This document shows positions 1-6,000 of a DNA stretch of 7,575 nucleotides, piece by piece (within the stretch, counting starts at the first letter, position 1; each line of letters starts with the position of its first letter). Source of the stretch: a virus (taxonomy: Duplodnaviria > Heunggongvirae > Uroviricota > Caudoviricetes); IMG/VR virus record IMGVR_UViG_2534681674_000011, one strand, 5' to 3'. The position numbers are program-made.

Positions 1-3000
1 GAACGCCACATAGACGAAGCCCTGCCATGTGCTGACGTAAGTAAAATCAGCCACCCACAGCTGGTCAGGACGTTCTGCCACGAACTGACGGTTTACGCGG
101 TCGCCTGCGGAAACGGCTTTCCGGCTGACGGTAGTACGGACCTTTTTACCCCGGAGAACACCGGCAAGTCCCATAACCGCCATGAGGCGCGCCACTGTAC
201 ATCCGGCCACCCTGATACCTTCGCGTAACAACTGGCGCCAGACTTTACGCACACCGTACACCTGATGATTTTCATCGTATACGCGCTGTATCTCTCTCTT
301 CAGCCAGTCATCGTGCTGCGCACGGGCACTGCGTTTATCCGGATGATGTCGCTGTTGCTGACAATGGTAATACGTTGACGGGGCAATATGCAGTTCGCTG
401 CATACCGGTCCGACCCCGTACTGCTCACGCAGCTTATCCAGCAGCGGCATTATTTTTTCCAGAGGCGGTCGAACTCCGCCTTCGCAAAATAAGCGGAAGC
501 CTGGCGAAGGATATCGTTACTGCGGCGCAGTTCACGATTTTCACGTTCCAGCTCTTTCAGACGCTGACGTTCAGCGGTGGTGAGTCCACCATCACCACTC
601 CCGGTATCCCGCTCATGCTGACGAACCCACACACGCAGAGTCTCTGGTGTACAGCCAATCTTTGGGGCAATGGAACAAATTGCCGCCCATTGTGAGTCAT
701 ATTCGCCCTGACTTTCCAGAACCATACGAACTGCCCGTTGACGGACCTCGGGGGAAAAACGTGTATTTTTAGTCATCCTGTTTACCTCTTTCTCAGGGAG
801 TTTAGTCTCCAGGATTCCCGGGGCGGTTCACATTTTTCCTTCGACAACTTCATGCCCGGGACGACAGGTTTACCATCCACCAGGATGGCACCGCGGCAGA
901 TGGTCCAGATACCCGTACCATCACGGTATGCTGTGGTGTGGTTACCTTCCTTTTCATCCAGAAACTGGTCGAGGATTTCAGGCGCAGACGCCCCTGCACC
1001 AATCAGCGCCAGAACGGCAGCCGACAGGCCGTATCTGATTTTTGCGTTCATGGATATTTATCAGGATTTATCGATTTCAAATCCCTGGATATGTTAAGTC
1101 TTCAGGCCAGCGGTGGAGTCTTCAGAGAACCAGTAATTATTCCCGGTAGTTTTCCTCTGTAGGTTATCAACACATCCTGCGCCTCTAAAATGATGGGCCG
1201 CTTTTCCGGCAACGGACCATCCCCTTCACATAACCCGGCAGCAACATCCATGAAAAACTGCTTCGCCTGCTTTTTCGCCTCAGCTTCGTAAAACTCCAGC
1301 GTGGCACCTTCAGTACGGTCAAGACTAATCGCCACATCTGGCAACAACAGTGACGGATACCCACCAATTTCCAGTGCCACAGTAACAGTAATCTTATCCG
1401 GGTAATTATTTATCCCTTTAACAACCAGTTCGTATTTTTTCTTCATCACTTTACTCTCCCCGCACCGCCTTACGCCGGTCCTCTCTGATTTTGAAATACA
1501 GGTTAGTCAGATACGTCAGCAGGCCAAACAGCAGACTCCCCAGTACACCTATTGCCACCCACTGGGACGGAGAGACTTTGTCCAGCAGTTGCAGTAACCA
1601 GTATCCCGTCCCTACCGCTGACGTGGTGTATGACACACCTGTTGTGATTTTTTCCATCTGATGTATGTCTCCGTCACCGCCGACAGAAAATGAAAGTAAA
1701 GGAAAACAAAAAGCCGCCAGTGTCACCCACTGACGGCCAACTCCGGGAGCCGTGATTATGGCATTCAGGCTCTGCTAAAAATGCCAGATAACATTCCGGC
1801 CCCCCTGGTTCAGGTTATAAATGACACAATATCTTGACAACATCCGTCACTGTCTGTCAGAAAATATACCGCCAGGCATAAGTATCATGTGAAATCCAAC
1901 TATCCTTCTGAGCCAGCACCTCTCCACCGAAAGTCAGTGCTGGCTGTTTTTTTCCTTAATAAAGCATCTGTAACTGAAACAATCCGCATATTGATAATAT
2001 ATTGACAGGCATCATTGCTGTCTGTGAAAAATAAGTCTCTACAAACATATAAGGCCTTTTAGCCAGCGTCTTCTTTCAGGTCAGTCGCTGGCTCTTTTTT
2101 TATTATGCTGCCGGTGCATTTATCTCCAGCACCAGACTTTCTATCTCAACGCCATACGCTGCATTTTTTGTAACATCCGTCAGCGTCAGCGCATTCAGTC
2201 CCAGTGTCAGACTGTCTTTTATAACCTGGAATGCCGGGCCAGCCACTCCATTCAGTTTCGGAGTAACCGTGGCACTGCCGGCGGTGAACACCAGCTCCAG
2301 CGTCTGCCAGTCGTTACCGTAATCGCCGAACTCCCCCAGCTTCGTGTTTCCGGCTTTCCTGTGATGCATCAGATTCACTCTGCCGTCAGTGGTCTGAGTG
2401 AAGTACGACATCAGGAACGGATTACCGGTACCCGTCATCGCCACACCATCAGGAACGGGAGCATCCGTATACAGATAAATCCCCAGCCCGAACTGATTGT
2501 TGGTCAGCGCGCCTGACAGGCGGAACTTACAGGTCAGTCTGCCGCCCTGTGTCAGCAGGGTAATTGCGTCATCCACCGGATGCGTCAGGGACCAGGTTTT
2601 ATTGCTCTGCTTGGTGATCTTAAATACACCATCTGACAACTGAATTCCGCCATCCTTAATGCTCCAGCCCTGCGCAGCAGCCTCTCCGTCTGCCGGCAGC
2701 AGGGAGATTGTGCGAACGGACGTATCTGCAGACGGACCCGATGGCGTGTTGCCGCCGGGCGAGGGTTTGATTTCCGGTGCCTTACCACTGATGAAGGCTG
2801 AGGTGCGCCCGGCTGCGTTCAGAATAGCGGTTGCCAGACGATCCGGAATAATGCTCCTGCGCGCCCATGAACTGAAATGTGTCGGGCGGTTTGATGATAC
2901 CTGGTTTCCATTCGTTCTCGATGCCGCACCGTAATATCCTGATGCCGGAATATCCGGATCTTCTGCCGGCGCGTTAGTGGCGGTATTGACACCGTTACCG

Positions 3001-6000
3001 TCTGTCATGAAGGGCACAAAATAAACGCCCTCACTCTCCCTGTTTTTATACCCGCCGTACACGGTGTCGTACTGGGTAGCGTATGTATTTTTCCAGTAAT
3101 ACGTCGTGTCACCACAAATCCACGGCACATCTGCAGCACTGCCACCATGGCACTGCGCGTTAAACACGGAGAGGTCAGCACGAAACTGTGTCAGCATGGC
3201 TGTAAACAGCGCAGGTTGCTGTGCGTGGGTGGCGGCGCTCATGTCAAACTCTCCCTGCATCCAGCACACCGCCAGCAACACATTTTTCGGGTTCTTCTGT
3301 AATGCAGCTTTAGTGCGCGCAATCAGGTCCTGATATAACGGTTTACCCACACCCCAGCGCGCCGAATCCTGGCTGGCCCCCGTGTCCGCACTGAATGTCC
3401 CCTCCGCGCCCTGGGTAAATGCCGAACCACCACGACAGCATGGTACCAGCAGGATCCCCGCGTTATTCGGGATATACGGGAGCAGTTTTTTGGCAATATG
3501 TAAGCCCTGGCCGACACAGCCGTACTGCCCTTTGCTCAGGTCTGCCTTCGGATGATTCAGCGTACTCATATCCTGCACATCATGCAGGCAGTGGTCGGCC
3601 GGAATAATATCGTTATATCTGCAGGCAGCCCCACCCGGCGTCACTGTACTGCGGCGCGCCAGCTGTTTAATGCGCGGATCCGGAGCATCGTATGAATTCG
3701 GCAGCGGAAGCCCTTCACCGTAAGCCATGGCATTGGACTGCCCGGCCAGTACGATGACGTAGTACCAATCCGGCTCAGTTGCACCACTGACCACCACATC
3801 ACCTTCTGCTGTAATCGCCTGCATCAGGGTATAAGGGGTTATGGCCACCGGACTACCAAACGGCTGCCAGCCCTCTTTCAGTTTGTGTGTCAGCTTTTCC
3901 GCAAGGTCTGACGGCGACGCCGCCCTGACAACATCATAATGTTTAAATGTCATTATTCCTCCCGGCCGGGATAGTGTATTAAATCAGATATGGAGTGGGC
4001 TGTAGTCCGGAAGCCTGAATGACACACGGGGACTACAGCCCAAAAAACGAAAAAGGCCACGCAGTTGCGCAGCCTGATAAACCCTGGTTAAAATCCACAC
4101 GATAAAAATGACAATGCAAGTATCTCATGCTGTTGCCCGAACCCACTCGGGCTTTTTTTTGCATGTAAAAAGGCTCCTGCGATGAGGAGCCTGGATATAT
4201 GCCTAATCTCTGTATACAGCATGATGCCGGGTGCCTCCCGGTGAGTTCGGCCTGGTGCCACCAAACCCGCGTATTCTCGCTTACGATCATCAAAGAGATC
4301 ATACCGTTCACCAGTCGCCCCTCCGCACAGGGGGATTCACCATGCAGAAATTTTCTAACACATCTATTATCAGACCGGCAACAACTGACTGAATTGAGAT
4401 GTATTTAACATTTATGAATCTCCGCCTGCTATTTTCACTGAGCTATTCTGAGTCAACGAAAAATAACTTCGCTGAATCCCCCTCCATTATGACAGGCATT
4501 AGTTTTAATGGTTACAGTCATCCCCGTAATTTGCGCACTGAGAAGAAGAGACTGAAGATTCCATCTGTTGGTAAATAATTCTTTATCACCCACTTTAACT
4601 GTAAAGGTATCGTCATCATTATATTTTGTATACTCCACCTTTCCAGTTACACAATCAGGCGTCGCCAGCGCACTTGCTGAAAAAAATGAAAGCGATGCAG
4701 CTATTAATAATGTTTTTTTCATTTTACCCCCTCAACTGCTAATAGTTCTGCGCATCAGAATTGCCCCCAGAGTGGATGAATCCCACAATATTTTATTGTG
4801 CGTAATCCCACGGACTCTTCCATCTGCCGGACACATAGAAGGAAACTCATCAGATGCCATTCTGGCAACTCGCGATGCATGATGATGACAATTCAGTATT
4901 AATGCCACGCTTCCCAGAATTGCATTAATGCTTCCAAAAGAAATTCTTCCTACACGAACAGAGTCTTGTCCATGATAGTCAGGCAGGACGCTACTCAACC
5001 TTCCCCAGTTCAATGTAAGATCAACATCTTCAGCAGTCATTACATAAGAACGCCCACTGAGATCATCCAGTGTTGTACGAAATCCCCTCTGTATTTGCCG
5101 AAAACGTAAAGCTTCAGCTGTCACAGTAACAAACCGTAACATCGCTCTTGCCACAGACTGCGTCAGTGAGGTTCCACTATGCGACATTAAATCCAGATAA
5201 GAAGTAGTCAACGAATGGCGATTTATCTGCATCCCCGTACGACTGATCCCTGCAACACGCTGTAACGTGGTATAGCTACTGTCACCAGACAATGTAACCG
5301 CTGTTGTACCTGGAAAGGTAACATGTGAAAAATCAGCAAAGCGATAAAAAACATTATTTGTCCTGTTAACAAATCCTGTCACATATAAATTATTTCGTTC
5401 AACAATAAGCCGTAGATTATTAAACCGCCCTTCCTCTGGATCTATCCCTCTGACATCAACTGCAAACAAATTATCCCCTGAGCCACTATCAATCATCAGT
5501 AAAGACGTACCTCCTGATGAAATAGTCTGTAATGGAGTACCTATTGCAGAGCGAATGACATTCAGCGAATCTACATACGTCTTTGCAGTCGAGAAGTCTA
5601 AGGTAAATTCCTTCGCCACCACATTAACTGAAAAGATAACAAAGAAAAAAGTTAGCACTCTAAAAATAATTATTTTCATATTACACAATACTCCTTGAGC
5701 ACCATACGATAACTATATTCTTGACATCCTCCACGCCCTGAAGGACGGCGTTTTACGGCGCACCGGATAAACGTAACAATAACGTAATGAAAATGATAAT
5801 CATATTCAAAGAGAGCTGCAACCTTAACATATCTGGTCAGATCTCATGCGACTACTTGACGTACGTAGATAACAACATTTATTGATACACAGGATGTTAC
5901 GGACATAAAAAAGCCAGCCACTGGGGGAGGCTGGCAAACTCGTAGAGCAAAATGCTGTTACGCAAACTTCGTTACAGGGTCATCCTGCAATACAAAAAAT

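Follow-up and report, generated by a model that had tools for sequence, protein, structure and literature searches.

A predicted ConA-like jelly-roll domain, probably glycan-binding, behind the esterase of an Stx1a-type phage NanS-p protein

The stretch of viral DNA analysed here (IMG/VR virus record IMGVR_UViG_2534681674_000011, Caudoviricetes; 7,575 nucleotides, hereafter the window) carries a nanS-p open reading frame (ORF) at 2103..3953 on the − strand (ATG start, 616 aa plus stop) whose product is identical to WP_000143042.1 ('SASA family carbohydrate esterase'). We found that residues ~412-616 of this protein (2106..2720, −) are predicted to form an autonomous concanavalin A (ConA)-like jelly-roll domain of the DUF6645 family that lies outside the esterase fold. 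This domain is probably a glycan-binding module tethered by a linker to a NanS-type esterase, in alleles that probably differ in ligand preference. A sequence-only reading of the window had called the C-terminal ~230 residues unassigned, a description made outdated by the Pfam family DUF6645, the crystal structure of a homologue (6YP6) and the annotation by the NCBI Prokaryotic Genome Annotation Pipeline (PGAP), which labels such genes 'DUF6645 domain-containing protein'. The literature already contains the gene, the domain family, the structure of a homologue and the targeting hypothesis; the observation is sound in its essentials, though not a new one. Our analysis adds that this diverged allele, with an altered putative binding site, is common in E. 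coli, that the domain reassorts apart from esterase and virion type, and that it can occur without the esterase.

A Pfam search of the 616-aa protein placed DUF1737 (PF08410) at residues 3-50 (3804..3947, −; E 1.1e-15), SASA at residues 66-262 (E 1e-12) and DUF6645 at residues 467-577 (E 4.6e-18, 65.9 bits versus a gathering-score cut-off of 27 bits). In a phmmer search of the PDB, the 337-residue NanS/YjhS chain (3PT5) covered residues 59-379 (2817..3779, −; chain residues 16-332; E 7e-121), while the 218-residue 'NanS-p' chain of 6YP6 covered residues 420-613 (E 4e-30) with no overlap between the two matches; the jelly-roll domain holds both the DUF6645 and the 6YP6 match. The GQSNA motif (residues 71-75; 3729..3743, −) is SGNH block I with the nucleophile Ser73; G71-N74 are invariant in a 30-sequence alignment, as are S73 and H359 among the 30 homologues. 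These results uphold the reading of the ORF as a NanS-p esterase with DUF1737 followed by an SGNH/SASA core with GQSNA. Esterase activity of NanS-p on Neu5,9Ac2 and on O-acetyl sialic acids of mucin has been reported for other alleles (PMC8065619, PMC5923452). Between esterase and C-terminal domain lies a Pro/Gly/Ser-rich interdomain linker (residues 386-411; 2721..2798, −), with Pro, Gly and Ser making up 52% of residues 386-412 versus 23% of the whole protein. The sequence AGRTSAFISGKAPEIKPSPGGNTPSGPS, from which the earlier reading counted its ~230 residues, begins at residue 381, and the region it described is 381-616.

An AlphaFold2 model of residues 409-616, built on a 30-sequence alignment, reached a predicted local distance difference test score (pLDDT) of 90.4 and a predicted template modelling score (pTM) of 0.87, with 16 strands and 53% strand content. 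With this prediction as the query, Foldseek returned 6YP6 as the top match in the PDB (E 2.7e-21, template modelling score (TM) 0.88/0.84, root-mean-square deviation (rmsd) 2.3 Å, 34% identity), followed by hundreds of ConA-like lectins at TM 0.55-0.66. These neighbours include ERGIC-53, VIP36, legume lectins, calreticulin and the sialic-acid-binding domain of V. cholerae sialidase (2W68), as well as the lectin-like domains of NTNHA and of botulinum neurotoxin (BoNT, HcN). Among predicted viral structures (BFVD), the neighbours are ConA-like phage proteins, tail-fibre-like or tropism-determinant proteins and the SGNH esterases of phages KPP21 and LIT1, which carry a structurally similar ConA-like domain, and one member of the family itself (P0223) has a weak Pfam match to Laminin_G_3, also ConA-like. 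We rejected a specific kinship to sialidase lectin domains of the 2W68 type, as identity of 13-14% and TM of ~0.6 amount to fold-level likeness only; the Pfam search of the 616-aa protein likewise gave no match to a sialidase-type lectin family.

The full-length AlphaFold2 model, made from 30 closely related sequences, was poor for the esterase and DUF1737 (pLDDT 61.9, pTM 0.43) and uninformative on interdomain packing, and we used it solely to contrast the linker with the C-terminal domain, which keeps a pLDDT of 75-92 behind a linker at ~30. The NanS chain (3PT5), an entire esterase, ends where the linker of the window's protein starts (residue 379), and the homologous C-terminal domain of phi24B vb_24B_21 (6YP6) was crystallised by itself, according to the accounts of Franke et al. 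2020 in PMC10462455 and PMC8065619. Because 3PT5 is complete without the region, 6YP6 crystallised alone, the solo model is confident and relatives without an esterase exist, the region is an autonomous domain. As modelled, it answers to the description of a carbohydrate-binding module in the CAZy sense, an autonomous non-catalytic module on a carbohydrate-active enzyme. The proposal of a separate, beta-rich, lectin-like region behind a Pro/Gly/Ser linker is thus borne out by the model, by the Foldseek match to 6YP6 and by the low linker pLDDT, and the domain-boundary and structure predictions that the sequence-only reading had called for point to a domain at ~412-616 rather than to an integral part of the esterase fold.

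The reference for regional identity was 933W p42, a protein as long as vb_24B_21. Identity is 62% in DUF1737 and 71% in the esterase core (70-90% over residues 77-226), and drops to 23-40% from about residue 376 on; the C-terminal domain is ~36% (34-37%) identical to 6YP6, versus 71% for the esterase core. C-terminal-domain types are discrete in the phage collection, with 40 records at 80% identity or more and 308 at ~34%. The window's type also occurs in Stx1a phages, in H-19B, YYZ-2008, JLK-2012, 434 and 2B8, and in the Stx2 phage 86, whose NanS-p is the 'CTR4' of Pascal et al. 2023 (PMC10462455); the 616-aa H-19B-type allele itself is not in the data set of that paper. DNA encoding the domain type, at a threshold of at least 80% identity over at least 80% of domain length, turned up in 1,391 complete E. 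coli genomes out of 5,426, often in several copies and annotated as a SASA or DUF6645 protein. Disrupted copies of nanS-p also exist among phages: that of Lys8385Vzw (L010:199-2136) is interrupted by an in-frame stop at codon 30, a position held by a conserved Trp in intact homologues, and that of 2B8 (L005:53-2030) is annotated as two coding sequences (CDS).

We then compared domain types with virion types in eight phages, a small sample that is not phylogenetically independent. These fall into three head groups whose major capsid proteins have no mutual BLASTP similarity. Traversvirus heads (933W, 86 and SH2026Stx1) go with a long DUF1737 loop ('STAGYGAEFIQ') and a long linker, and with both domain types (933W has the 6YP6 type, 86 the window's type). 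Heads with a protease-major capsid protein fusion (11KH263, 1602, YYZ-2008 and JLK-2012) go with the short loop 'AITPYTLMQ', the variant found in the window, and again with both domain types (the window's type in 11KH263, the 6YP6 type in 1602). The lambda E/D-type head of 434 goes with the short loop and the window's C-terminal-domain type. Since both domain types occur within the Traversvirus and the protease fusion groups, the C-terminal domain assorts independently of the virion, which fits an outward-facing specificity module better than a virion contact. The DUF1737 loop and first linker (window 3774-3947, residues 3-60) had two forms, Traversvirus versus the rest, in 8 of 8 phages (L001, L004, L006-L010 and L013). 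A candidate rule by which the loop variant tracks head type was only partly supported, as the short loop sits on two unrelated heads, the lambda E/D type of 434 and the protease fusion type. Taken together, these sequence comparisons indicate that the C-terminal domain is one of several discrete, recombining alleles that reassort apart from the esterase and from virion type.

That the domain binds carbohydrate is the same hypothesis as that of Franke et al. 2020, as related in PMC10462455 and PMC8065619, and glycan binding with specificity differences between alleles is here inferred from homology and predicted fold. In the mechanism we favour, a disordered Pro/Gly/Ser linker of ~26 residues would tether the non-catalytic lectin-like domain to a complete NanS-type 9-O-acetyl-sialate esterase, the domain would bind sialylated mucin-type or other surface glycans, and this hold on the esterase, or on its carrier particle, would raise the local substrate concentration, with recombining alleles differing in ligand preference. 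The putative carbohydrate site of 6YP6 is described in PMC10462455 and PMC8065619 as lined by Y510, Y515, Y540 and F611. Their counterparts in the window's protein are F488, Y493, F518 and L584, so three of four stay aromatic, and Y493 is retained in 12 of 13 divergent domains of the family.

Several observations weigh against this reading. The counterpart of F611, L584, sits in a loop with indels. Invariance across the 13 divergent domains is limited to G470, G471, F477 and W549; position 488 varies among F, Y and I and position 518 among F, Y, I and A, which argues that the proposed site is not strongly conserved, and some of its aromatics may be core residues. As of 2021 there was no carbohydrate-binding experiment for any NanS-p C-terminal domain (PMC8065619). 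The ConA-like fold is also used for protein-protein contacts, as in the NTNHA and BoNT HcN matches. Finally, the phi24B domain is cleaved off after virion release (bioRxiv 10.64898/2026.04.10.717836), which sits less easily with a targeting module.

The phi24B work also concerns the virion. In that phage, NanS-p (gp84) decorates the capsid as an abundant protein, with a hexamer of DUF1737 that plugs the central hexon of every T=9 face via a Tyr42 loop and density that ends at residue 57; fresh virions still have the C-terminal domain, which is cleaved later, and the SSP motifs of the two linkers were put forward as processing sites (bioRxiv 10.64898/2026.04.10.717836). DUF1737 of the window's protein has the Tyr (Y41), but its loop is three residues shorter and differs in sequence, and no SSP motif occurs anywhere in the 616 residues, whereas 933W carries SSP at residues 57 and 414. 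The window itself carries no head genes. LC744179.1, which encodes an identical NanS-p, has a head of the protease-major capsid protein fusion type and gave no tblastn match to the major capsid protein, portal or terminase of 933W.

The earlier description of nanS-p as a moron is questionable. Terminator-like hairpins (4192-4171 and 4075-4054, −) lie upstream of it, between stx1B and nanS-p. No strong promoter match was found directly upstream of nanS-p, promoter-like sites are not enriched (11 found versus 8.0±2.8 expected), and the phi24B homologue is a virion protein, a role that speaks against the label in that phage.

An exhaustive phmmer search of 1.84 billion representatives gave 58 matches, from which two large ones (P0254 and P0259) were discarded as spurious SpaA-repeat proteins. 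Family members with DUF1737 and DUF6645 and no esterase were found in this search. P0218 (294 aa) has this architecture, and in three assemblies (L017:6001-6885, L018 and L019) it is flanked by an antiterminator and a P21-type holin, the same slot as that of nanS-p; its full-length sequence was not found in the 5,426 complete E. coli genomes, which points to a rare protein or to one from another species. P0237 has two DUF1737 domains, DUF6645 and a further C-terminal domain, and its gene sits just upstream of terminase and portal genes of the lambda type (L020:6001-7323). P0223, P0229, P0237 and P0243 share an extra C-terminal domain of ~110 residues after the jelly roll, with '...FRDDG...LPD..IS.GNTV...GKTW' motifs and no Pfam match. 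Word-index homologue searches yielded Escherichia fragments almost exclusively, and a scan of genome contigs with two peptide patterns found three Escherichia loci, a result limited by the patterns and no gauge of taxonomic range.

In a broader and rather doubtful extension of the glycan-binding reading, NanS-p would be a general, modular glycan anchor that lambdoid phages display on their capsids: DUF1737 would dock to the hexon centres of several unrelated heads via head-adapted loops, a swappable DUF6645 lectin would be the main payload, and the esterase would be an optional middle module, as esterase-less DUF1737-DUF6645 proteins in the same slot suggest. Were this so, C-terminal-domain alleles would be tropism determinants of Stx-phage particles in the gut, and the DUF6645 cassette would set which mucus or cell-surface glycan holds the virion or the released enzyme.

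The cleavage seen in phi24B invites a different explanation, in which the domain acts as a pro-domain or timer that can be cleaved off and has no glycan specificity of its own, and slow (auto)proteolysis at the linker regulates the esterase or releases the virion or enzyme. In phi24B, peptides of the C-terminal domain were found only in the ~70 kDa form of fresh virions, stored virions having a ~35 kDa form, and that preprint relates an earlier report of autoproteolysis of purified NanS-p (bioRxiv 10.64898/2026.04.10.717836); the linker of the window's protein is, moreover, predicted to be disordered and exposed. However, the SSP processing motifs at 933W residues 57 and 414 have no equivalent in the window's protein, and a 200-residue lectin fold that comes in discrete alleles and is kept in esterase-less proteins is more than a pro-peptide needs. 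We therefore consider a pure pro-domain unlikely, all the more as cleavage and glycan binding can coexist.

It is similarly improbable that the domain serves protein-protein contact instead of sugar binding, whether in oligomerisation or with a capsid, tail or host protein partner. The jelly rolls of NTNHA and BoNT HcN among its structural neighbours would suit such a role, as would the tail-fibre and tropism-determinant proteins in BFVD and the virion association of the phi24B homologue. Yet the independence of domain type from the head module makes a virion-specific contact unlikely, the missing density past residue 57 in phi24B indicates no ordered capsid contact there, and the best non-self structural neighbours are sugar-binding lectins. 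An integral role of the C-terminal region in the esterase fold or catalytic machinery is contradicted at the level of fold and very hard to credit: NanS, a complete 337-residue esterase, aligns to residues 59-379 only, the region models confidently alone behind a linker of very low pLDDT, and the domain is retained in proteins that have no esterase.

NanS-p genes are multicopy in enterohaemorrhagic E. coli and enable the bacteria to use mucin sialic acids that are 9-O-acetylated. Should the domain target glycans, its discrete alleles could set the enzyme's site of action in the gut, and perhaps that of the phage particle.

Positions 831-7575 of the window are 99.6-99.9% identical to Stx1a-converting phages, H-19B included, and the − strand reads ninG, ninH, Q, stx1A, stx1B, nanS-p, holin S, a DUF1327 ORF and a truncated R. 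The late operon starts with the antiterminator gene Q (6186..6719, −; Phage_antitermQ, E 9.6e-52). The stx1A ORF (4732-5688, −) and stx1B (4453-4722, −), annotated in H-19B, lie as a pair (4453..5688) directly upstream of nanS-p, and a P21-type pinholin gene S (1451..1657, −; Phage_holin_2_1, E 3.3e-32) lies directly downstream, its identity supported by an equivalent 207-nt gene annotated in phage 434. This gene order confirms the placement of nanS-p between the toxin and lysis genes, downstream of Q, and the same slot from Q/stx to holin S holds nanS-p in 933W, 434, 86, YYZ-2008 and JLK-2012. The layout agrees with published accounts in which late transcription, dependent on Q, passes through stx and nanS-p and on into the lysis genes; mitomycin C raises nanS-p mRNA by 1-2.4 logs in Stx2a strains (PMC10462455). 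Q-modified polymerase would then presumably read through the hairpins between stx1B and nanS-p. Two small RNA (sRNA) genes lie in this interval, STnc100 (4161-4374, −; Rfam, 190.7 bits) and the anti-GcvB sRNA AgvB (4100-4159, +; Rfam, 56.6 bits versus a gathering score of 56), each terminating at a terminator-like hairpin.

Between holin S and the endolysin gene R lies an ORF of the DUF1327 (YdfR) family (1102-1449, −; 115 aa), a layout also annotated in YYZ-2008 and phage 86. The SAR-endolysin gene R is truncated (R', 782-1051), with ~73 codons left, and since homology to H-19B ends at 831 we attribute the cut to the insertion sequence (IS) element of the IS3 family at the left end of the window (1-830; orfA at 450-776, −; ALIL frameshift pseudoknot at 379-495, −). 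With R interrupted, this prophage copy is probably unable to bring about normal lysis, and the release of both toxin and NanS-p would be affected. At the right end, an antirepressor ORF with a KilAC domain (7409-7567, −) is cut by the end of the window, so that both ends lie in repeated or mobile sequence.

Among known systems, the closest to the window's domain is 6YP6 (vb_24B_21/933Wp42), which it resembles in family, in fold (E 4e-30, TM 0.88) and in its place after an esterase and a Pro/Gly/Ser linker, and the 933W nanS-p occupies the same genomic slot from stx to holin S. The two differ at the putative site (Y/Y/Y/F in 6YP6 versus F/Y/F/L in the window), in several indels, in the SSP motif that the window's linker does not have, and in overall length (645 aa for 933W p42 versus 616 aa). 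The 'CTR4' protein of phage 86 (PMC10462455) shares the window's domain type (87.6-88% identical), its linker (89%) and the RPTH variant of SGNH block IV, but combines them with a 933W-type DUF1737, a long SISSP linker and a Traversvirus virion in a protein of 631 aa, whereas the window's protein has a short-loop DUF1737 and 616 aa. Chromosomal NanS/YjhS (3PT5) has a homologous esterase core with GQSN and the conserved His in common, and possesses neither the window protein's DUF1737 nor its C-terminal domain. L-type and other ConA-like lectins and 2W68 share the jelly-roll beta-sandwich (TM 0.55-0.66), a fold resemblance only, given 10-15% identity and an rmsd of 5-8 Å, with no relationship at the level of sequence; the V. 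cholerae sialidase domain (2W68) is likewise a sugar-binding module on an enzyme active on sialic acid. In complete phages that bear the window's allele, the major capsid protein shows no BLAST similarity to that of the 933W/phi24B type. The phi24B gp84 is an orthologue with three domains, encoded at the same place in the late operon and 83% identical to the window's protein over the first 30 DUF1737 residues, while the window's Tyr-'tooth' loop is three residues shorter, its first linker is shorter by 11 residues, and SSP is absent.

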